This document shows positions 15,581 to 60,483 of a DNA stretch of 64,000 nucleotides, in pieces; positions within the stretch are counted from its first letter, which is position 1; every line of letters begins with the position of its first letter. The notes under the pieces were generated by a model, which was not told the DNA's origin, searched no databases, and was given only the letters and a program-made list of their open reading frames with translations. Source of the DNA: an uncultured virus (IMG/VR IMGVR_UViG_3300010998_000812) (taxonomy: Duplodnaviria > Heunggongvirae > Uroviricota > Caudoviricetes); the IMG/VR virus record IMGVR_UViG_3300010998_000812. One strand, 5' to 3'. The position numbers were made by a program, and so were the translations under genes.

Positions 15581-15618
15581 GGGTCAAGGATGCGGCTTGT
15601 CCTTATTTTCTAAAACTA

Positions 15619-15780
15619 TTGACTCTGAAACAGAACAATGATATAATATATATAAGGTCAAATGACGGCGCTTGACCGAATTTTCTTCTTATTTTTTCTA
15701 ATTTTCTTTATTCTTTTTACCTTCTTTCGCTCATGTCTTTAACCGAAGAAAGGCTCTTCATTCAGGAAGGGTCTTTTTTC
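15619..15780 (+). ncRNA. Promoter-sRNA-terminator unit 3
   Basis: TTGACT-17-TATAAT, hairpin GGTCAA/TTGACC, pyrimidine tract, terminator. Confidence 0.6.
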
Positions 15781-20016: not shown

Positions 20017-20171
20017 TGCAGTCAAACACAAGATATGTACGACAGAGCTGGTTACAACCCTGCTTATTCTGTACACAAATCCTTTTTTACCGGATACCGC
20101 CGTAAAGTCCCTGCCTTTAGGCATGGGGAGTGTCAAAAATGTGCGTATTAGTTGTTGCAAAGGAGAAGCAA

Positions 20172-20480
20172 ATGAGAATGTCATTTTATGAGTTTCCGGA
20201 AGATACGCCTGAAGGAGTGCTTATTGATGAGGAGCTTCCTGTAGTGCTTAAGAATGGACAAACGATATCATCGCAATGGCTTACCGAGGAGAAGAGATCT
20301 CTCATAGACCATTTCGAGAGAGTCACTCAATGTACCATTACTTACGCCAAGAAGATGCTTAAGAAATATGGCGGGAGAGCTTGGACAGAGCATTACGACA
20401 GGGACGGAGGATTGTTCGAGGTCACTCCGATAGAGCTTACCGGAAATAACAGCAGATTCAAATATAATCGGCATCTATAG
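20172..20480 (+). CDS. Hypothetical protein
   Basis: RBS AAGGAG before MRMSFY. Confidence 0.65.
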   Translation: MRMSFYEFPEDTPEGVLIDEELPVVLKNGQTISSQWLTEEKRSLIDHFERVTQCTITYAKKMLKKYGGRAWTEHYDRDGGLFEVTPIELTGNNSRFKYNRHL

Positions 20481-23502: not shown

Positions 23503-23512
23503 GTATACAATT

Positions 23513-23655
23513 CGGGGTGGCTCCGGCTACAGGCAGAGCCTGATGTCAGCTTCGCGACGCCCTTGTGACGATGAAGTACCTATCAAGTATAAGCAACTCT
23601 TGTTAAAGTCAATTCCTGTATAGTATTCCACGGGACACTTATGATAGTGCGAGAA
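23513..23655 (+). ncRNA. Dispersed structured leader motif copy with ~32-nt insert in the GCTCGA loop
   Basis: Conserved blocks plus insert CCGGCTACAGGCAGAGCCTGATGTCAGCTTCG. Confidence 0.8.
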
Positions 23656-23683: not shown

Positions 23684-23945
23684 TTCAACTACCCACCACT
23701 AAAGTAGCGGGATTGTGAAACAATCGAGTTGAATAGCCTAAGTGAAGAGCTAAAAGCTCTGAACTACGTTAAGAGAGAATGTATAGTTACCTACGGATGT
23801 AGTACCAAGTCTGTAGCTCTAAGGTCAATGATTAAACAGCTTTTCGGGGAAGAAGCAGTGTTGTTGACAAGAAACCTCTCATTAACATTGGCGATGGTAC
23901 ACTAACGGTAAGATATACACCGGCTTAATGCGTAAAGTATATCAA
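23684..23945 (+). ncRNA. omegaRNA (HEARO-type) scaffold of IscB
   Basis: TCAACTACCC..CTAAAG..GGG, GTTGAATAGCCTAAG, CTACGTT, CCAAGTC..GCTCT, AACATTGGCGATGG, immediately upstream of iscB. Confidence 0.85.
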
Positions 23946-23969
23946 TCTTAAGAGAAGGAGAGCCTTTCA

Positions 23970-25253
23970 ATGGTATATGTGTTAAACAAGAACGGGCAGC
24001 CGCTTATGCCTACTGAAAGGCACGGTAAAGTAAGGAGACTGCTTAAGTCTAAGAAGGCTATAGTAGTCAAGAGATGTCCGTTCACTATACAGCTACAATA
24101 TGAATGTGGCAATGTAACACACCCTATTACTTTAGGCGTGGATGCAGGGAGCAAACATATAGGTCTATCTGCGGCTACAGAGAATAAAGAGCTTTATGCA
24201 GCAGAAGTGGAGCTTCGTAACGACATTGTTAAACTCTTATCTGCGAAACGAGAGCTTCGCATATCTCGTAGGAACAGAAAGACTCGATATCGCAAGGCAA
24301 GATTTAATAATCGGGTGAGTGCTAAGCGAGACGGGTGGTTAGCTCCTTCGTTGCAGCACAAGGTTGATACACATCTTAAGGTGATAGCGGATTTACATAA
24401 AATACTGCCTATCACAAAGATAGTGGTTGAAGTAGCTGCTTTCGATATTCAAAAAATCAAGAACCCTGATATACAGGGGACTGAGTATAAACAAGGTGAA
24501 CAGTTAGGGTTTTGGAACGTCAGAGAGTATGTGCTGTTCAGAGATGGACATCAATGCCAGTGCTGTAAGGGCAAATCTAAGGATACAATACTCAATGTGC
24601 ATCACATAGAGAGCAGGCAGACCGGAGGAGATGCACCCAACAATTTGATTACGCTATGCGAAACATGTCATACCGGGTATCATAAGGGTACTGTCAAGCT
24701 CCCTAAAACCATAAAGCGAGGCATGAGGTTCAAGGATGCTGCATTTATGGGTATAATGAGATGGGCTTTCTTTGAAGAGCTTAAGCGTACATACCCGGAT
24801 GCAAGACTTACGTATGGGTATATTACAAAACATACGAGGATATCGAATGGCTTAAGTAAAACTAAGACTGTTGATGCTCGCTGTATTAGTGGCAATCCTA
24901 TGGCTACTCCCTTAGATACTGTATACTATCTTAAGAAGGTACGGTGTCATAATAGACAGATACATAAATGCACTATTAACAAAGGCAGCATTCGCAAGCG
25001 TAATCGAGCACCATACGATGTTAATGGCTTCAGACTCTTTGATAAAGTAAGATACCAAGGTGCCGAACGCTTTATCTACGGAAGAAGGTCATCCGGGTAC
25101 TTTGATATCAGAGGGCTTGACGGTACAAAGATTTCTTCAAGTGTAAGCTACAAAATGCTAACATTATTGGAGACAAGAAAAAACATTCTAATAGAAAGGC
25201 ACTTGACTGATGAAAAACGAAACCAATCAAAAATCTCCTGCCTTTGCCACTAA
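23970..25253 (+). CDS. iscB: RNA-guided endonuclease IscB (IS200/IS605 OMEGA)
   Basis: PLMP domain (GQPLMPT), RuvC-I LGVDAG, Arg-rich bridge helix, RuvC-II VVE, HNH (CQCC..HHI..NLITLCETCH), RuvC-III VDARCI. Confidence 0.95.
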   Translation: MVYVLNKNGQPLMPTERHGKVRRLLKSKKAIVVKRCPFTIQLQYECGNVTHPITLGVDAGSKHIGLSAATENKELYAAEVELRNDIVKLLSAKRELRISRRNRKTRYRKARFNNRVSAKRDGWLAPSLQHKVDTHLKVIADLHKILPITKIVVEVAAFDIQKIKNPDIQGTEYKQGEQLGFWNVREYVLFRDGHQCQCCKGKSKDTILNVHHIESRQTGGDAPNNLITLCETCHTGYHKGTVKLPKTIKRGMRFKDAAFMGIMRWAFFEELKRTYPDARLTYGYITKHTRISNGLSKTKTVDARCISGNPMATPLDTVYYLKKVRCHNRQIHKCTINKGSIRKRNRAPYDVNGFRLFDKVRYQGAERFIYGRRSSGYFDIRGLDGTKISSSVSYKMLTLLETRKNILIERHLTDEKRNQSKISCLCH

Positions 25254-26406: not shown

Positions 26407-26479
26407 AATATCTGTGTACAGCAAACAAGACTTTTTGATTTTCCTTCCGAGAAGTCATACTATTAACAAATAAATAATT

Positions 26480-26590
26480 CGGGGCAGCTCGATGCCCTTG
26501 TGACGATGAAGTGCCTATCAAGTATAGGTAACTCTCGTTAAGGTTAATCCTCCCATAGTATTCCGAGAGGCGCTCATTGAAGTGCGAGAA
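26480..26590 (+). ncRNA. Dispersed structured leader motif copy
   Basis: Conserved blocks, about 18 nt after a CATACTA promoter box. Confidence 0.85.
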
Positions 26591-26705
26591 CGCCGAACTC
26601 CGCCTTCTTCTTAGCGGTCAATCGCATACAGCGATGATACATACGCGATATATATGCATTATCACTCATAAAAGAAAGATATTTTTGGGAAAGAGAAGAA
26701 CAAAT

Positions 26706-27492: not shown

Positions 27493-27732
27493 TATGTTGG
27501 TGCGAAACGGAATATTTCAGAATATTTCGTGAAGCTCGGATTTGACATCTCTTAAGAGAAGCTTAAGCTGTGTACGACCTATGAATTTAGGTATTGCAAT
27601 TACCGGGGAACCATGCTATAATTTAAGAACAAAGAGGCAGAAGATAATATTTGTAAGTAAAAAGATGTGTACGAACAACAACAGTTTATGATTTTCCTCG
27701 CGAAAAGTCATACTATTAACAAATAAATAATT

Positions 27733-27844
27733 CGGGGCAGCTCGATGTCCTTGTGGCGACGAAGTGGCATCTATAACGATGTTAACTCTCGTTAAGGTTA
27801 ATCCCACAATAGTATTCCTGTGGGCACTTGTAGGAGTGCGAGAA
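27733..27844 (+). ncRNA. Dispersed structured leader motif copy
   Basis: Conserved blocks after a CATACTA promoter. Confidence 0.85.
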
Positions 27845-27873
27845 GAGTGCTATTCTCACCTTAAGGAGACAAC

Positions 27874-28365
27874 ATGACAGACGAAAAGTATCTTAATATC
27901 TATAGCGCTATACGAGATATTCTCGTTATATTCGCAGATTCCGAGATTGGCGGAGAATACGAGTTCAATAATGATGTTATCGCGAGGTATCTTGATGGCA
28001 AGGCTATAGTAGACTTTTGGGAATGCAACACCAAAGAAGAAATCTATGAAAGATTTACTCAGGACATCATAAACGGTTATCCTGTATGGCAAATGCTTAT
28101 CCTACCTGAATGGACAAAGGGAATGATCGAGAAATCTTTCGCCGAAGAGGTAAATAAAGAAGAGGAAGAAGCAAAGAAGATTTACAAATGCCTTACTTGT
28201 AAGCATTTCTGCAAAAGCACTACGAGGTTCGGTATGCATTATAGCTGTAAGCGACCGCTGAAGCGAATGGGAATGAGAGAACCAAGAAGCGGTCCGTTTG
28301 AGCTGAAGAAAGCTTGCAAGTATTATGAGGTTGCAGACACAGAAACGGACGAAAAAGGAGTATGA
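27874..28365 (+). CDS. Hypothetical protein with a C-terminal Cys cluster
   Basis: RBS AAGGAG, CLTCKHF..C..C. Confidence 0.65.
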   Translation: MTDEKYLNIYSAIRDILVIFADSEIGGEYEFNNDVIARYLDGKAIVDFWECNTKEEIYERFTQDIINGYPVWQMLILPEWTKGMIEKSFAEEVNKEEEEAKKIYKCLTCKHFCKSTTRFGMHYSCKRPLKRMGMREPRSGPFELKKACKYYEVADTETDEKGV

Positions 28366-33468: not shown

Positions 33469-34224
33469 TTGGCAAAATATCAATGTACGAATGAACAGCA
33501 AAAAGAATTCATACGTGAGCTTGAGAAAATCGGAGGTTTGCACACAACAAGAGATTTATTCTTGGATTGGGTCAGGTATACTGCTCTCGGAATATCATTA
33601 GGCGGATTTGATACACAAAAAGAAGAACATATCGAAGAACTTAATGGTATAGTGAAGAAGTATAAAGAAAGTGAACTGGAACAGTTTAATTCCTTAGCCG
33701 AAATAGTTGCGAAGCATCTTAAGAATAATACTGATCAGGATTATCTCGGAGACATCTATGTAGAGCTTGGTCTTTCCAATGGTAACAGGGGACAAATATT
33801 TACTCCATACTACATCAGTAAGCTGATGGCAAAACTTATATATAGCCCGGATACCGGGGCGAAAGGATACACAACTGCATCGGATCCTTGCATTGGAAGC
33901 GGCACGCTTATGATTGCATATGCCAATTGTGCAGCTGAAAACGGTTTATCGATACAAGACGACTTACTTATCGTAGGTCAGGATATAGACAGGACGCTTG
34001 CAATGATATCTTATATCCAGCTCTCGATTATAGGCGCTGCCGGTTATGTATCAGTAGGAAACTCTCTTCTAAGCCCTGTTTGCGGCACAGATTTGTTCCC
34101 TCCATACGATAAAGAAGTCTTTATAACGCCGGCTTTTTGCACAGGAATATGGGAACTCAGAAGGCTGATTTGGTTGGCAAGCATTCAAGAAAGTAATGAC
34201 GATGAGTCTGATCAGCAAGAGTAA
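33469..34224 (+). CDS. N6-DNA-methylase-like protein lacking an NPPY motif
   Basis: DYLGDIY..GQIFTPY..DPCIGSG..GQDID, TTG start after AGGAGG. Confidence 0.7.
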   Translation: MAKYQCTNEQQKEFIRELEKIGGLHTTRDLFLDWVRYTALGISLGGFDTQKEEHIEELNGIVKKYKESELEQFNSLAEIVAKHLKNNTDQDYLGDIYVELGLSNGNRGQIFTPYYISKLMAKLIYSPDTGAKGYTTASDPCIGSGTLMIAYANCAAENGLSIQDDLLIVGQDIDRTLAMISYIQLSIIGAAGYVSVGNSLLSPVCGTDLFPPYDKEVFITPAFCTGIWELRRLIWLASIQESNDDESDQQE

Positions 34225-34264
34225 AAAAAGCTGTGTACGAGCACGAAAACAATTAAAAAAGCAC

Positions 34265-34372
34265 TTGACATTTTTCTATTTTCATGATACTATATACATG
34301 TCAGGGTGGTAGCTGACAAAAATAGTGATTATTTGAATAAAGCCTCGGATTAAGTTCCGGGGCTCTTTTTTT
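34265..34372 (+). ncRNA. Promoter-sRNA-terminator unit (~75-nt transcript)
   Basis: TTGACA-17-TACTAT, hairpin TGTCAG/CTGACA, terminator. Confidence 0.55.
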
Positions 34373-34380
34373 GCTCATTT

Positions 34381-34465
34381 ACGGAAAGACTTTCCATAAT
34401 AAACGGAAAGACTTTCCGCCCTCAATGCTACCAAACGGCTTTATTGAGCCACGGAAAGTTTTTCC
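34381..34465. repeat. ACGGAAAGACTTTCC imperfect-palindrome repeats
   Basis: Copies at ~34381, ~34403 and ~34451 (variant), and another at ~26993. Confidence 0.65.
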
Positions 34466-34513
34466 GGTATATATGTTTCGTACACAGCTTTAGAAGAAAT
34501 ACGAGAAAAAATA

Positions 34514-34735
34514 TTGACAAAATATATAATGCATGGTATAATAATTAAGGATAAAGAATAGTATAGACCAACGGTTTTGCTGCGGTTCCGGGTTGAGTGT
34601 TTAGACTTATGGAACGTGAATGCAACAGGAACGGTGCTATTCAGAACACATCCGTAGATAATTACGTCGGGGCTACAGACCGACAAACAGTGAGACTGAG
34701 AAAGAGACGGGCGACACACTCGTCTTTTTCTTTTT
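34514..34735 (+). ncRNA. Promoter-sRNA-terminator unit (~185 nt, long irregular hairpin)
   Basis: TTGACA-17-TATAAT, GAATAGTA/TGCTATTC closing helix with GTTCC/GGAAC inside, terminator AGACGGG..CTCGTCTTTTT. Confidence 0.6.
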
Positions 34736-34828
34736 ATTTTATGATAGGCTTGTCCCTTTTTTCGGGGAGGCTTGTCCTTTTTTTCAAAAAGTATTGACTC
34801 TTGAGAGAAAATGATCTATAATAGTAAA

Positions 34829-35585
34829 TGTGACGAATGATATATCATGTTTCTTCGCTCTTTGGTGATTTTGACCAAGCGTGAGACGGCGAAGCTCTGG
34901 CGACGGAGTGTCACTCCCTCCTCGATGTACCATCCGTTACTAATTGTACCGTACGGCATACGGGAATTAACGCTTGTGGAGACTTCGTAATTCGTAGCTT
35001 TTTACAGAAGGCTATGTAGCGGTCGATGAAGCAAGAGCCACGGGTTTAACTGCGTGGAATGCTATAAGGCAAATATTACCGTCGGGCTCAGAGCGCCCGC
35101 AACCGCTCTGTATTTTACCCCACAGCAGGCTTATTCACATAAACTCGCTCAAGGGTCATACAAGCGGGCATACAGTCATCTGTATCGTATCCCCCGCACA
35201 CTCCTTTCGTCATATGCCATTCTCTTTCTGCGGCGGTCTTAGTGTAAATGAAGAGGACACTTTGTACAGCCCTAAAGAGCAGCCCGTTTCTTAGGGAAAA
35301 TGGTGACGGACTTCCGTCCATCTAACGGTATTCCCTCCGTTGTGGCATCACGAAACTCCATTCGTCAACCAGCAGGCAACGCAGAGCCTCTCGTTTGAGA
35401 GAACGGCGACGCGCTACGCGAACGACTTTTAACGGTAAAATCATTGCCTTATCTCCAATCTTCTTAAGAGATCTCTTACTCGTCTGTGTTTCACGGTTCC
35501 GTGCAATACAGCTGCGACGTAAGGGATTTCTTTTTTGGGGAAATCAAAAGGCAGGTATCCGGATAATGGATATCTGCCTCTTTGT
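34829..35585 (+). ncRNA. Candidate large (~750-nt) structured RNA
   Basis: TTGACT-17-TATAAT at 34794-34822, no credible ORF, GC-richer with many hairpins, TGACGAATG/CATTCGTCA long-range helix, terminator at 35549-35585. Confidence 0.55.
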
Positions 35586-35587
35586 TG

Positions 35588-36253
35588 TTATTCATCTTTT
35601 GAAGATGCTTCTTCGTTGTCATTGTTGCACATCTCAAGAGCAGCAAGGACTTCATTTGTATCGAAGTCTTCGTAGTCCTGAACACTGGCATTGCCGTCAT
35701 CATCCAGAAGCATAAGTTCTGTCTGAGTGGGAAGAGTGTGATATCCGTTAGACACCTCAATGTGCTTTGCTATTCTGTCGGGTATTGATGTGATGTTATA
35801 CTCCTTTAAGGTAACAGCATTGGTTATGTAAGAATGTGTATCCGGTATATACACACTTACGAATACAGGCTGGCTGTTTTCTCTACACAGAGTCATCAAG
35901 TCGTCAATATATCTTTCGACATCAAGTGTCGGGGCATCCCCGTTCTGAACACTGACTACGTCTTCTCCATTTTGACGAGCTACTCCATCGGCATCTATAT
36001 TCATAAGATTATCCTTTGGAGGAACAGTATCAAAGCCATTGGCAACATTAAGGTGTTCGGTGATCTTATCCGGTTCAGCTTCCACAGATATAGAAATAGG
36101 GGAAACTATATCGGATATATATTCCTTTTTTTCAGGTACATAGACTGTAACGAACATCGGTATCTTACTTTTCTGACAATATTCTCTCAAATCTCTGATT
36201 TTCTTCTGAGCTGCGAGCTTAGTCACATTCTCAGGAAAAGCATAAGCCGGCAT
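35588..36253 (-). CDS. Hypothetical protein with internal duplication, third gene of the par operon
   Basis: Two copies of DL...C.....P.FV.VY.P....YI...PD.I..H..V.NG..T.P. Confidence 0.7.
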   Translation of the reverse strand: MPAYAFPENVTKLAAQKKIRDLREYCQKSKIPMFVTVYVPEKKEYISDIVSPISISVEAEPDKITEHLNVANGFDTVPPKDNLMNIDADGVARQNGEDVVSVQNGDAPTLDVERYIDDLMTLCRENSQPVFVSVYIPDTHSYITNAVTLKEYNITSIPDRIAKHIEVSNGYHTLPTQTELMLLDDDGNASVQDYEDFDTNEVLAALEMCNNDNEEASSKDE

Positions 36254-39635: not shown

Positions 39636-39689
39636 AAAAACGGAAAAATCACTGGAAAAGTGAATTTTTAGATGAAAATTAAATGAAAT

Positions 39690-40285
39690 TGCATCTACTG
39701 TAGCCACCCGCGCCTGTCAGCTCGTCTACTGCTGACCGGATCCAGTTCGTCCAATCCATAACGCGAGCCCCCTGTCTTTCGACAACGAACCCTTGATAGT
39801 GATATATCAATATCAGCCGCCCCCTCTAATTTTTGCGTGTGTCCATCGCGACGGTCAGAGTCACCCGTCTCACCGGGATACCACTGCTACAGTACGATAC
39901 CTCGGAGTGCATTTTCAGCCCACTACCCTTCGGCTACACCAAACCATCTGCTGTGCCTCTCCTTAAGATTGGCTGTGCAAGAATAAATCCGTACACAAGT
40001 ATATTTAACGAGCGGGGCAGACAAGGTGGGGAATCCCGCTCTTTTCAGTTGTATCACTCGTCCGAGCCTGACACACAAGCCTTGAAGGTTCGGAACTGCT
40101 TATCAAGGAAACTCTGGTAAAAACCAAAGACCATCAGGTATTTACCTTTATCATTTGCGGATGATGTCCGCTCAGGTTGACGATACCTGAGTACGGGAGC
40201 GGTATTCCTGTACTTCAACGAAAAGAAATGGTGTCTTCACAGGCATATGTACGAAGTGATCCCGACCGTCCGGCGGTACACGAAT
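39690..40285 (-). ncRNA. Candidate large (~600-nt) structured RNA
   Basis: Starts after a minus-strand CATACTA promoter (~40303), no credible ORF, many GC-rich hairpins (CTCAGGT/ACCTGAG, GAGCGGG/CCCGCTC, GTCAGC/GCTGAC). Confidence 0.5.
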
Positions 40286-40512
40286 TATCATCAATATTAG
40301 TATGATTTTTCAGAGTGAAAAAAATAAAGAAGATAATCAATTCCTGAATTTCTGTTTTATAAGGGATAATGTCATACTATTATTATCTAAATACCTTGAC
40401 GAATGGAGTATTAAACAGCATCAGACCTGCGTACTGAATGTCTGTACTCATCATCAAGGCTTATTATTTCAACGTTTCGGCTTAAAAGTGCCGCATGAAA
40501 GGAAGGTTTATT

Positions 40513-50426: not shown

Positions 50427-50551
50427 TAAAAACGAAGGCAGGAGCGACTTAAGTCTTCTGCCTTTTATTTGTGTAGAAAAAACAATAGTTTTCGATTTTC
50501 TTTTCGTTCAATCATACTATTATTAAATGGTCATAGATAGTTCGTGACCTA

Positions 50552-50662
50552 CGGGGCAGCTCGATGTCCTTGGGACGATGAAGTGCTTATCCGGCATAAG
50601 CAACTCTCGTTAAGGTTAATCCCACAATAGTATTCCTGTGGGCACTTGTGGTAGTGTGAGAA
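50552..50662 (+). ncRNA. Dispersed structured leader motif copy
   Basis: Conserved blocks, plus an extra 5' GGTCA/TGACC hairpin like that of the minus-strand copy. Confidence 0.85.
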
Positions 50663-50710
50663 AAATGAGAAAAATGAAAAAAATATAAATAAAGAAAAGA
50701 AGTGAGTTTT

Positions 50711-52243: not shown

Positions 52244-52397
52244 GAAAAGATGTGATAATATTATAACGAAGGGGCAATCAGTTTGCGTGGTACACATCTT
52301 TCAGTAAACAAGGAAATTGAGCGAATAATTTGTGTACAAACGACAACAGTTTGTAGTTTTCCTTCCGAGAAGTCATACTAATGACAGATAAATAATT

Positions 52398-52508
52398 CAG
52401 GGCAGCTCGATGTCCTTGGGACGATGAAGTACCTATCAAGCATAGGCAACTCTCGTTAAGGTTAATTCACACATAGTATGCCGTGTGACGCTCTTTGAAG
52501 TGCGAGAG
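52398..52508 (+). ncRNA. Dispersed structured leader motif copy
   Basis: Conserved blocks after a CATACTA promoter. Confidence 0.85.
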
Positions 52509-52570
52509 GAATCAACATAGAGGAATCAACATATTTTTCTAAATATTCTTGAGCACAAGGAGGAAGGGTA

Positions 52571-54459: not shown

Positions 54460-54717
54460 CGAATGAGCGGCGATTTTCCTGTATAACGGTCAAGGGTTGC
54501 AGAAACAGGCTATTGTTTCCGGCGGACACCCAAGCTGGCAAGTGTATACATAGAAATATTGCTGCATTGATGTTTTCGGCTTAAGAGGGGGATACTACGG
54601 TATCTCCCTCTTTTTGTTTTGTCTTACGAAATCACATACTATTATTATGTAAGCATTATGACGAATGGAGAATGTCTGGAAATGCTTAAACAATAACGTT
54701 TGAAAGGAAAGAATATC

Positions 54718-57121: not shown

Positions 57122-57286
57122 ACGGATAATAGCATTTCAAGACAATAAACAACAGAAAAGGGATACCGTGTGTATCTCTTTTTTGTTTTGTTCCGTGAAA
57201 TTTCATACTATTTATATAGCTTTTTTAAGACGACTGGAGAGTATGTCTGAAAATGCTTAAATCTAAAATATGAAAGGAAAATGATA

Positions 57287-57958
57287 ATGATTACAGAAAT
57301 TAGAAAAAGGGACGGAAGGACTACATCGTTCAACGTCCAGAAGATAGCGGACGCTATATTCAAGGCTGCTGTAGCTACCGGCGGCAATGATTACGAAGAG
57401 GCAAACGCACTCGCGAAGGAAGTGTGTACAGTCCTTGAGCGTAAGGGCGGCGAGAACTATGTTCCTACAGTTGAGGAAGTTCAGGACGCCGTTGAAAAGG
57501 TGCTTGTAGAGACCGGTCACGCAAAGACTGCAAAGGCATACATCCTTTACAGAGCGGACAGAACTCGTATCAGAGAGATGAACACATCTCTTATGAAGAC
57601 ATATGAGGATCTTACGTTCAAGTCAGCTCAGGACTGCGACATCAAGCGTGAAAACGCTAACATCGACGGCGATACGGCAATGGGTACTATGCTTAAGTAT
57701 GGTTCTGAAGGCGCAAAGCAGTTCAATGAGATGTATGTACTCGATCCGGTTCATTCAAGAGCTCACATCGACGGGGACATTCACATTCACGACCTCGACT
57801 TCTACACACTCACAGAGACCTGCTGCCAGATAGACCTTAAGAAGCTGTTTCACGGCGGTTTTTCTACCGGTCACGGGTTCCTGCGCGAGCCTAACAGCAT
57901 AGCAAGCTACGCTGCTCTTGCTTGTATAGCGATACAATCAAATCAGAATGACCAGCAT
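57287..57958 (+). CDS. nrdD: Anaerobic ribonucleoside-triphosphate reductase, exon 1 (ATP cone)
   Basis: IRKRDGR..VEEVQDAVE, RENAN, IHIHDLD, TCCQ, ending QSNQNDQH. Confidence 0.92.
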
Positions 57959-58830
57959 TAACAAATAAATATCTGTGCCAGTATAGAGAAATCTATACTG
58001 AAAACCACGTTAACCTATGTTCAAAGGGTGTAGGAATAACTCCTTAAGAGGCAGCGTAGGAAATGACGCTTTGTATTCCTGCTAACAGGGGATTAAAAGG
58101 ATCCTGTGCCACGTTAGTATTACAAAAGTAATAACTGAAAGGTGGTGTGCGTATGGTAAGAATTAACAGTTTATACTCTTTGGAAATCGTAATGGACTAT
58201 TATTATATAAGCGAAGACTTAAGGATTGTAAACAATGTGACAAAAACAGAAAAGAAGATATCTATCAACAAAAGAGGATATCCTTATGTTACATTGGAAA
58301 CCCGTGAAAATCGGAATATAAAAGTTCCGATTCATAAAATCGTTGCTCTTGCTTTTATAAAGAATGCTCCATATGAGTTGATAGAACATATTGATGATGA
58401 CAAGATGAATTATGCCATCACCAATTTAAAGTTTTCCAATCATAAAAACAATGCGCTTTCAGCAAGTAAACATGGATTACTTCATAAAAAAGAAGCTGTT
58501 TACAGATTGTCTTTGAAAAGCGGAGAAGTTTTTATGGGAACTATAAAAGAACTTGTAAAACTATCATCAATTCCTAAAGGAACGCTATATGACAATTATT
58601 ATACTGCACGAAACGGAAGAATAAAAGAAATTGTATTACTAACAGGTTAACAGACTGTCGAAAGGCTACTTTAACGCATAAGGTCGGGCAACTCCAAATC
58701 GATAGAGAATGCCCTAATAAAGAGCACCGAGTAGAGTAGGATGGAGATGAACACCATTCCAAAATGTGGTGAACCCAGCGCTTGAAGGCGGGGTCAGTGG
58801 TATAGTCGGCGGCTTCACAAAGAAGTCACG
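57959..58830 (+). mobile_element. Group I intron in nrdD
   Basis: Exon 1 ends in T and the intron ends in G. Splicing restores QNDQH-GGQSIPNFD. P7-like CAGACTG/TATAGTC elements and an internal HNH ORF are present. Confidence 0.9.
58153..58650 (+). CDS. Intron-encoded HNH homing endonuclease
   Basis: GYPYV..IHKIVALAF..EHIDDDKMNYAITNL..N. Confidence 0.85.
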   Translation: MVRINSLYSLEIVMDYYYISEDLRIVNNVTKTEKKISINKRGYPYVTLETRENRNIKVPIHKIVALAFIKNAPYELIEHIDDDKMNYAITNLKFSNHKNNALSASKHGLLHKKEAVYRLSLKSGEVFMGTIKELVKLSSIPKGTLYDNYYTARNGRIKEIVLLTG

Positions 58831-60417
58831 GGAGGTCAATCGATACCTAATTTTGATTATGCGCTTGCAGACGGCGTGAAGAAGACATACGTGAAGATGT
58901 ACAGAAATAACATCATTCGCGGGCTTTCGCTTGAGACTGATATCAGCGACGCGGATGCTGAAGAGAAGGTCAAGGCGTACTTTGACGAGCTTCAGGAGAA
59001 GGATATCGTTCCTACGCTTGCGAACGACAACAACTTCTGCGCTGAAGAACTCAAGTACCTCACAGAAATCGCGGGAAGCGAAGATACAGCAAAGAAGATC
59101 CAGAAGTTCGCTCTGAAGTTTGCTGAAAAGGAAACAGATAAGGCGACATATCAGGCAATGGAGTCTCTTGTACACAACCTGAACACAATGCACAGCCGTG
59201 CGGGAGCACAGATACCGTTCTCCTCGATAAATTACGGTACGGATACATCTCCGGAAGGTCGTATGATCATCAAGAACGTGCTTCTCGCAACTGATGCAGG
59301 CTTAGGCAATGGAGAAACAGCTATATTCCCCATACACATCTTTAAGGTGAAGGATGGGATAAACTACAATCCGGGCGAACCTAACTATGATATGTTCAAA
59401 CTGGCAATAAAAGTGTCAGCAAAGCGTCTTTTCCCGAACTTCTCGTTCATTGATGCTCCGTTCAACATCCAGTACTATAAGCCCGGCGACTATCGTACAG
59501 AGGTTGCTTACATGGGCTGTCGTACCAGAGTTATCGGCAATGCATATGATCCTACGAGAGAAATCGTTACGGGACGCGGCAATCTGAGCTTTACATCTGT
59601 AAATCTTCCTCGCCTCGCAATAAAGGCACAGAAGGATGTAGTGAAGTTTTTCGAGCTTCTTGAGGGCGAAATGGACATTGTTGTGGCGCAGCTCTTAGCA
59701 CGTTACAAGATACAGGCTCAGAAGAAGGTCAAGAACTATCCTTTCCTTATGGGTCAGGGCATCTGGCTCGACTCTGATAAGCTCGGTCCCGACGACACGA
59801 TAGGCGAGATACTTAAGCACGGCACACTTTCTATGGGCTTCATAGGACTTGCCGAATGCTTAAAAGCTCTTATAGGAGTACATCACGGCGAGAGTGAAGA
59901 GGCTCAGGAGCTTGGACTTCGAATCATCGGTCGTATGCGTCAGAGAATGGATGAAGAGACAAAGAAGACAGGAATGAACTTCTCGCTCCTTGCTACTCCG
60001 GCTGAAGGTCTTTCCGGTAGATTTGTAAAGATCGACAGCAAGAAGTTTGGCAAGATAGAGGGAGTAACGGACAGAGCGTACTACACAAACTCCTTCCACA
60101 TTCCGGTTTACTATCAGATCTCTGCGTTCAAGAAGATACAGCTGGAAGCTCCTTACCATGCTCTTACAAATGCCGGACACATCAGCTATGTAGAACTTGA
60201 TGGGGATCCCACAAAGAACCTTGAGGCGTTTGAACAGATCATACGCTGCATGAAGGAATCCGGCATCGGCTATGGCTCTGTTAACCATCCTGTTGACAGA
60301 GACGCTGTGTGTGGATACACGGGTATAATAGGGGATAGATGCCCCAGATGCGGACGCACGGAGGCAGAACACAACTTCTTTACAGAGAAGATCAAGAGAA
60401 TTCGCCCCTGCTGCTGA
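58831..60417 (+). CDS. nrdD: Anaerobic ribonucleoside-triphosphate reductase, exon 2
   Basis: HNLNTMHSRAGAQIPFSS, MGCRT, GNLSFTSVNLPR, TPAEGL, YYTNSFH. Confidence 0.92.
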   Translation, partial: GGQSIPNFDYALADGVKKTYVKMYRNNIIRGLSLETDISDADAEEKVKAYFDELQEKDIVPTLANDNNFCAEELKYLTEIAGSEDTAKKIQKFALKFAEKETDKATYQAMESLVHNLNTMHSRAGAQIPFSSINYGTDTSPEGRMIIKNVLLATDAGLGNGETAIFPIHIFKVKDGINYNPGEPNYDMFKLAIKVSAKRLFPNFSFIDAPFNIQYYKPGDYRTEVAYMGCRTRVIGNAYDPTREIVTGRGNLSFTSVNLPRLAIKAQKDVVKFFELLEGEMDIVVAQLLARYKIQAQKKVKNYPFLMGQGIWLDSDKLGPDDTIGEILKHGTLSMGFIGLAECLKALIGVHHGESEEAQELGLRIIGRMRQRMDEETKKTGMNFSLLATPAEGLSGRFVKIDSKKFGKIEGVTDRAYYTNSFHIPVYYQISAFKKIQLEAPYHALTNAGHISYVELDGDPTKNLEAFEQIIRCMKESGIGYGSVNHPVDRDAVCGYTGIIGDRCPRCGRTEAEHNFFTEKIKRIRPCC

Positions 60418-60483
60418 TACTTGACAAAGGAGAAAATAGGTGGTATAATATATACTACTTAAGGAAACGAATGGAGGACTAAT

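Follow-up and report, generated by a model that had tools for sequence, protein, structure and literature searches.

An orphan TnpB guide-RNA scaffold as the probable core of a composite non-coding unit in a presumed mobile element of ruminant-gut bacteria

Results and Discussion

Genomic context of the unit

The window, i.e. the whole stretch of 64,000 nucleotides that was analysed (IMG/VR record IMGVR_UViG_3300010998_000812), looks like a large mobile element, phage or plasmid. Many of its ORFs have no family match. The recognisable genes include those for an actin-like partition protein (PHROG 691), DNA methyltransferases, HNH endonucleases and a YafQ/RelB toxin-antitoxin pair, together with an integrase-like gene, a split NrdD gene, and IscB with a HEARO RNA. 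DNA nearly identical to the window is present in gut metagenomes of sheep and cattle. The gene for NrdD, the anaerobic ribonucleotide reductase (57281-60417, plus strand), is split into ORFs 57281-57961 and 58876-60417; the two halves are separated by an ORF of 167 aa belonging to no known family, and the intervening sequence may be mobile. The HEARO RNA (23684-23906, 133.9 bits) is the sole Rfam match within the window to reach its gathering score. It is followed by IscB, with RRXRR and HNH domains, and the two form a module (23684-25253, plus strand) for a second RNA-guided nuclease, unrelated to the system described below.

The unit under study is located in a 1.36-kb ORF-poor gap (34225-35587), where a block of plus-strand genes and a block of minus-strand genes converge. 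We looked for defence or other roles among the genes that neighbour the gap and found none. A replication origin in the gap was considered and rejected, because the gap combines this convergence of gene blocks with a peak of the cumulative GC skew. The gap also contains a second small non-coding unit (34514-34740, plus strand), with a perfect sigma-70 promoter (12 of 12 positions, with the TG element) and a 14-pair terminator about 175 nt downstream of it; searches for an ORF led by a ribosome-binding site, an Rfam match or a homologue of this small unit gave nothing.

Organisation of the unit

The sequence-only reading had described 34829-35585 as an ORF-poor, hairpin-rich stretch bounded by a strong promoter and a terminator, and this description holds. 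No ORF longer than 68 aa lies between these positions. The promoter is of sigma-70 type and matches the consensus at 11 of 12 positions, the terminator forms 13 pairs, and the full-length RNA folds far better than its shuffled versions (z -4.67, 20 shuffles). Against PHROG, none of the eight small ORFs in the gap obtained a match better than E 0.085, and a coding reading was rejected since these ORFs match no family; the 47-aa ORF at 34847 has no Shine-Dalgarno sequence, and two of its three strain differences alter a residue. It is thus plausible that 34829-35585 is a non-coding transcription unit. Its features are as follows.

34747-34755 and 34769-34777, plus strand: GGCTTGTCC in two direct copies, both of which precede a T run and lie shortly before the -35 element (read directly)
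34794-34822, plus strand: sigma-70-type promoter, TTGACT-17-TATAAT
34829-34945, plus strand: 5′ leader (117 nt), containing the sense half-motif TGACGAATG and a weak antisense-like box, CCATCCGTTAC (34930-34940)
34946-35065, plus strand: orphan TnpB guide-RNA scaffold (model R1 and blastn)
35066-35088, plus strand: guide-position segment, 20-23 nt directly 3′ of the scaffold
35089-35117, plus strand: internal terminator-like hairpin of 7 pairs (hairpin 35089-35110) with the tail TATTTTAC; -10.4 kcal/mol, z -3.9
35118-35548, plus strand: lineage-specific tail (430 nt), containing box 2 (35200-35213) and box 1 (35355-35368)
35549-35579: strong terminator (13 pairs, -22.3 kcal/mol)

The terminator region (35549-35590) serves both strands, and the convergent minus-strand operon ends at 35588. 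Folded alone, the leader reaches -37.0 kcal/mol (z -2.76), its 5′ end pairing with the third box at 34930-34940. In the minimum-energy fold of the full-length RNA, a competing hairpin replaces the internal terminator-like hairpin. The tail has a G+C content of about 50%, against about 40-45% nearby, and its plus strand folds better (z -4.03) than its minus strand (z -2.09).

Pairwise alignment with 15585-15705 showed that the GGCTTGTCC element and the promoter recur near 15595-15650. This paralogous promoter cassette (15595-15700, plus strand) comprises the GGCTTGTCC element and TTGACT-17-TATAAT, followed by a short hairpin and a T run, and a tiny transcript is possible there.

The conserved part of the unit is a TnpB guide-RNA scaffold

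Among 50,697 phage records, only 34946-35072 found matches, in unannotated DNA of two Enterocloster phages (74% identity). A 22-mer of this scaffold core is present in more than 112 metagenome loci, and a 27-mer in 4 IMG/VR contigs. When 34200-35700 was compared by blastn with 118 fetched loci (L001-L118), 122 alignments were obtained. Except for two weak ones at 34246-34295, they start at 34941-34960 (mostly 34942-34947) and end at 34980-35072. In elements of IS200/IS605 and IS607 type, the RAGATH-18-derived reRNAs are found immediately 3′ of tnpB. Among the copies sampled here, a TnpB-like ORF lies directly upstream of the scaffold in 46 of the 72 that have at least 600 nt of upstream sequence; full-length ORFs of this kind end some 25 nt short of the 22-mer and roughly 10 nt short of the scaffold. 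The RAGATH-18 family (RF03064) overlaps the shared 22-mer in 4 of the 20 loci scanned with Rfam. According to PMC11061315, TnpB nucleases are guided by an reRNA that has RAGATH-18 as its core: the RAGATH-18 part (73 nt) lies between a 5′ and a 3′ flank, and a guide of 20 nt follows the 3′ flank.

The TnpB ORF of locus L002 has OrfB_IS605, Cas12f1-like TNB and HTH_OrfB_IS605 domains and is preceded by a Y1_Tnp (IS200-type) transposase gene. More generally, members of the TnpB clade nearest to the window (L002, L008, L075, L082) carry a scaffold resembling RAGATH-18 along with a Y1 transposase and a left end that contains a hairpin; unlike what the name IS607 would imply, this clade uses no serine recombinase.

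We aligned 26 distinct scaffolds of the nearest clade, each 118 nt long (alignment A3). RNAalifold predicted 26 pairs, 7 of them with compensatory changes. In the last 10 nt, eight columns are identical in all 26 scaffolds and the other two are at least 90% conserved. All the aligned loci diverge exactly past the scaffold end, which indicates that the guide position lies there. A model (R1) was built from these 26 TnpB-adjacent scaffolds; it aligned with 34946-35065 of the window over its entire length (model positions 1-118 of 118) with a score of 75.8 bits (E 1.1e-14), and 23 of its 26 pairs are standard in the window copy. Over 100 loci, R1 scored 100-149 bits in the near clade and 36-70 bits for TnpB-linked copies of other clades (for instance L065, 70.4; L019, 60.3; L011, 55.5; L050, 38.8). 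The window copy is therefore within the range of presumably working scaffolds.

The scaffold is made up of a 5′ hairpin; a stem, P1, interrupted by the internal loop GGAG/CGAUGAAG; a distal stem specific to its lineage; and a 3′ stem-loop. Not all of it is equally conserved. Most loci show 86-97% identity over 36 nt (34947-34982), while the distal stem has been replaced. Uniform decay would account for such a pattern less well than descent from a working lineage. RF03064 itself, even when E values up to 10 were allowed, did not detect the copy in the window, so that its gathering score is not reached; at E up to 0.01 it also misses the TnpB-linked loci L002, L003 and L006 and the orphan locus L001, and its reach is thus limited, the near clade being outside it. 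Judged by sequence and predicted fold, 34946-35065 is a TnpB guide-RNA scaffold (reRNA/omegaRNA) of RAGATH-18 type.

With ROOL, GOLLD and OLE the unit shares size class, location on a mobile element and strong predicted folding, and the sequence-only reading had proposed a single ornate RNA of the ROOL/GOLLD class, a proposal that a match to an RNA of known kind would contradict. In 34300-35800, nothing in Rfam, including ROOL, GOLLD, OLE, RNase P and the group I and II introns, matched better than E 0.04, and the sole part of the unit conserved in the other DNA searched is the 120-nt TnpB guide-RNA scaffold. This part being an RNA of known kind, the earlier proposal is not supported.

The scaffold is an orphan

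The genes that would normally accompany such a scaffold were searched for throughout the window. The TnpB of L002 gave no tblastn match better than E 2 in the 64 kb, none of 62 window ORFs had a Pfam OrfB_IS605 or Cas12f1-like TNB domain, and no tnpA was found in the 64 kb. The left-end hairpin of L002, L008, L075 and L082 had no match in the window with up to 3 mismatches. The leader showed no similarity to any fetched locus by blastn and no TnpB remnant by tblastn, and its local alignment scores with the left ends were within the range of shuffled sequences.

The right end is altered as well. The last 10 nt of the scaffold are GGAATGCTAT, against GGAGTGTCAA in the near clade, a difference at 5 positions that places the window copy outside the conserved terminal motif; scaffolds of other clades end in GTCAA, GTCAC or related sequences. 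With these terminal 10 nt altered, the RNA may no longer be recognised. Separately, GGAGTGTCA at 34906-34914 (plus strand), 32 nt upstream of the orphan scaffold, reproduces 9 of the 10 bases of the near-clade scaffold terminus; it may be a trace of an older right end, or due to chance.

Allowing up to 3 mismatches, neither a second copy nor a target of the guide-position segment was found in the window; the segment has no match in 120 fetched loci, and its 18-mer is absent from viral_contigs. Promoter targets of this segment were sought and none was found.

Two further relics of TnpB guide RNAs were observed in the window. The first, at 20102-20136 (plus strand), corresponds to the 3′ stem-loop with an intact GGAGTGTCAA (R1 19.5 bits, E 0.006) and sits just before ORF 20130-20480. 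The second belongs to a minus-strand region (39653-40304) that begins with a CATACTA promoter at 40304, followed at once by a diverged mini scaffold (40279-40177, minus strand); R1 gives the latter a weak score of 11.8 bits, and its P1 covaries. Past this mini scaffold, a GC-rich ORF-free leader of about 500 nt (fold z -1.7) reaches gene 39652-39332. A paralogous relationship between our unit and the ORF-free stretch 39653-40290 (minus strand) was rejected, only the box being similar and the fold z being -1.7. The segments that follow box 1 and the mini copy at 40177 have no second copy in the window.

Orphan copies also occur in the near clade, where they arose in another way. In L008, a left end abuts a second scaffold. 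L001 has 28 bases of the L002 left end immediately ahead of its scaffold, showing that this locus too retains left-end sequence. No strong promoter or terminator was found near the L001 copy, so the succession of promoter, scaffold and terminator is not the general layout of orphan copies.

Relatives of the tail and variation between strains

Outside the scaffold, homologues were sought in several collections. Against phages in distant mode, the scaffold core alone matched when the tail or the whole unit was used as query; against plasmids, neither had a homologue. The neighbouring proteins led to no relative of the unit in viral_contigs, and a 19-mer across box 1 was absent from the same collection. 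A window-specific 19-mer of the scaffold occurs at 2 loci of genome_contigs; these were discarded as chance hits because no further similarity surrounds them.

A single metagenome contig, belonging to run X3, covers the stretch from end to end. It shows 31 differences, of which about 20 are within 35496-35600, without clear compensation; the rest of the unit differs by about 1%, and both boxes are unchanged. Run X2 provided two contigs, the first stopping at 35065 and the next starting at 35093, which leaves the guide position without cover; this gap in cover was given no weight. In a metatranscriptome library, one contig of 176 nt covers 34990-35165; we take it as a hint only of transcription, since such libraries can contain DNA.

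A composite unit built around an immobilised scaffold

The reading that best fits the data is that of a composite non-coding unit with an orphan, immobilised TnpB guide-RNA scaffold at its centre. We assign a probability of roughly 0.45 to the view that this scaffold continues to be expressed and can be loaded by a TnpB produced elsewhere. The host-type sigma-70 promoter would start a non-coding transcript near 34829, which would run through the leader, the complete scaffold, the 20-23-nt guide-position segment and the weak terminator. A short RNA would end at this internal hairpin, and read-through would add the 430-nt structured tail up to the strong terminator, so that RNAs of about 290 nt (short) and 750 nt (long) are expected. 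The scaffold is probably the right end of a TnpB element, left stranded by the loss of tnpA, tnpB, the left end and the terminal motif, and after these losses it could no longer move. It would fold like its relatives and be loaded by a TnpB supplied by insertion-sequence copies of the host or by the unseen rest of the element, the segment of about 20 nt from 35066 being the putative guide. In the long form, the 5′ half-motif would pair with box 1 and close the molecule. The tail and the boxes are not explained by the guide-RNA reading.

PATE-type elements are gene-less derivatives of IS200/IS605 that retain both ends and the guide-RNA scaffold. The window copy resembles them in having the same scaffold without tnpB, and such forms exist in the near clade (L008, L001). 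It differs from them by the lack of a recognisable left end and by the changed terminal motif, and is therefore not a mobilisable two-ended element. The RAGATH-18 reRNA of the ISFba1 system (RF03064; PMC11061315) has the same 5′ hairpin, P1 with the GGAG/CGAUGAAG loop and 3′ stem-loop, with the same guide position directly 3′ of the scaffold. In contrast to it, the window copy has no adjacent tnpB, has its own sigma-70 promoter 124 nt upstream, carries a replaced distal stem and altered terminal 10 nt, and obtains no RF03064 score; moreover, its nearest TnpB-linked relatives follow a Y1 (IS200-type) gene and not a serine-recombinase gene. The guide RNAs of TldR proteins, which are repressors derived from TnpB (PMC10705468), are likewise immobilised RNAs of TnpB type, and by analogy the window RNA could serve a protein in regulation instead of transposition. 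Unlike these guide RNAs, it has no TldR or TnpB gene nearby and no promoter target for its guide-position segment.

The strongest alternative is that of a plain fossil: a dead right end that remained when a TnpB element was deleted, transcribed only by virtue of its position between a promoter and a terminator, with scaffold and tail both functionless. We hold this to be somewhat improbable by itself, and nearly as likely as an expressed, loadable scaffold. The altered terminal motif, the failure to find tnpB, tnpA or a left end in 64 kb, the lack of a guide-segment target in the window, the fetched loci and viral_contigs, and the two further relics (20102-20136; 40279-40177, minus strand) are all what a fossil would leave. 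Orphan copies are, in addition, frequent in the family, and function need not be assumed for them. Here, 26 of the 72 copies have no TnpB-like match, and PMC11061315 gives an adjoining TnpB gene for 64% (10,258 of 16,029) of RAGATH-18 RNAs, the other 36% being not adjacent. A near-consensus promoter with a strong terminator is harder to reconcile with such a relic, as are the standard state of 23 of the 26 pairs, the nearly unchanged 5′ part that is universally conserved, the plus-strand fold, which is far better than that of shuffled sequences (z -4.7 for the full length and -4.0 for the tail), and the non-random antisense boxes.

Antisense boxes and a motif shared by several leaders

The tail contains two boxes antisense to a motif found in leaders elsewhere in the window. 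Box 1, ACTCCATTCGTCAA (35355-35368), was reported by the sequence-only reading as the exact reverse complement of 40396-40409, and we confirm this; the 12-nt match that it had noted is placed at 54659-54670, and the related box that it had seen is box 2, ACTCCTTTCGTCAT (35200-35213). Allowing up to 2 mismatches, the 14-mer has 5 matches where 0.48 are expected, a number reached by none of 100 shuffles; the 11-nt core GACGAAYGGAG, with up to 1 mismatch, has 10 matches, against 1.48 expected. Only two copies of the motif are in minus orientation in the 64 kb, and both are inside the unit. The antisense complementarity to the shared leader motif is thus real and beyond chance. In sense orientation, the motif is located 24-26 nt after the start of the -10 region at seven promoters.

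40398, 42983, 54216, 54660, 57229 (one mismatch) and 61297: motif sites behind CATACTA promoters, 25-26 nt past the first base of CATACTA
60466: seventh motif site, at an equivalent distance behind a consensus-type promoter near 60436

The GGAG inside the motif resembles a Shine-Dalgarno sequence, and at 60466 it is placed as a ribosome-binding site. The unit itself begins with the half-motif TGACGAATG (34831-34839), 9 nt past the -10 hexamer, as had also been pointed out from the sequence. The suggestion that box 1 would be contested by the RNA's own 5′ end agrees with the modelled structure: in the predicted full-length ensemble, 34831-34839 pairs with 35359-35367 with a probability of 0.57-0.77.

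These data invite a reading in which the long RNA acts in trans, its boxes pairing with the GACGAAYGGAG leaders as an antisense regulator or sponge in competition with its own 5′ end. We regard it as unlikely. It would account for the exact complementarity over 14 nt at 40396 and over 12 nt at 54659, for the presence of both minus-orientation copies within the unit, and for the fixed distance of the motif behind seven promoters. The motif is in a hairpin loop in three of the six leaders folded singly, and no pairing is predicted for the first four bases of box 1 or for most of box 2. However, for 9 of the 14 bases in box 1 the predicted partner is the 5′ end of the RNA, leaders with C at the variable position mismatch both boxes, and no consensus structure was found among the six leaders (class A). 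In two runs from related metagenome strains, TG is changed to GA in the 5′ half-motif (34831-32) and the boxes are unchanged. Antisense or sponge RNAs of phages and plasmids show the same short, exact complementarity to leaders, partly masked within the RNA; the box in the present RNA, in contrast, is over 500 nt away from the 5′ end and is preceded by a weak terminator.

Less likely than other readings are a role of the motif at the DNA level and a single large RNA. According to the former, which we consider a little more improbable than pairing in trans, GACGAAYGGAG is an operator or promoter-proximal element acting on double-stranded DNA, whose orientation is irrelevant; the copies in the gap would be extra binding sites or, in a variant, sense motifs of minus-strand read-through from the convergent operon. 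No binding protein was identified, the minus-strand copies have no upstream promoter of the element's type, and the plus strand folds better than the minus strand, three points that weigh against this role. The spacing from the -10 region is nevertheless fixed at seven promoters despite differing intervening sequence, the leaders share no RNA structure, the motif is found in both orientations, and the terminator at 35549-79 acts for both strands, as would be expected of sites on DNA. A dual-role RNA, i.e. a stand-alone, promoter-driven TnpB guide RNA working with a nuclease or repressor supplied in trans and fused to an anti-leader domain, appears quite improbable; if it existed, its boxes would pair with the motif of at least seven of the element's own transcripts, and RNA-guided targeting would be coupled to the control of gene expression. 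Finally, a single new large RNA of the whole 750 nt, with the TnpB-type scaffold recruited as a structural module, is highly improbable. The one promoter and one strong terminator that bound the unit, the full-length z of -4.67 with a predicted helix closing 5′ and 3′ ends, and the rise of G+C to about 50% are set against the absence of conservation outside the scaffold in the collections searched and of any Rfam match, an internal terminator-like hairpin, and differences between close relatives that cluster in 35496-35600 without clear compensation.

Significance, promoter family and class B leaders

A conspicuous candidate for a large non-coding RNA is thus mostly explained by a known class, the TnpB guide RNAs, and the composite unit adds a case of a TnpB guide-RNA scaffold that stands by itself after a promoter close to consensus, within a large mobile element from bacteria of the ruminant gut. 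Should the orphan RNA indeed be used in trans, mobile elements could borrow the TnpB of their host; phage-borne CRISPR mini-arrays are a comparable case. The comparison with RF03064 also means that the Rfam RAGATH-18 model misses a whole TnpB-linked clade. Together, the antisense boxes and two repeated types of leader (class A and class B) point to a possible RNA-based regulatory layer in the element.

The CATACTA promoters form a family of about 20 near-identical members. They share a GTAC...AGTTT block upstream, a -35 hexamer similar to TTGTTT and, at -10, CATACTAT. The two strands of the window together contain 24 CATACTA sites, against about 8 expected from length alone, and some 20 of these 24 sites have a TTGTTT-like -35 hexamer. 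Behind promoters of this family, a second, structured leader of about 130 nt (class B) is repeated.

26476-26640, plus strand: class B leader
27729-27890, plus strand: class B leader
50548-50700, plus strand: class B leader
52394-52560, plus strand: class B leader
15112-14960, minus strand: class B leader
about 23510-23655, plus strand: likely sixth class B copy, just upstream of the HEARO/IscB unit

The class B leader has no Rfam match at the gathering score, and a 19-mer from it found no match in viral_contigs. In the consensus fold of five copies, compensatory changes support 8 of the 21 pairs, and the loop ATAGTATTCC is conserved.
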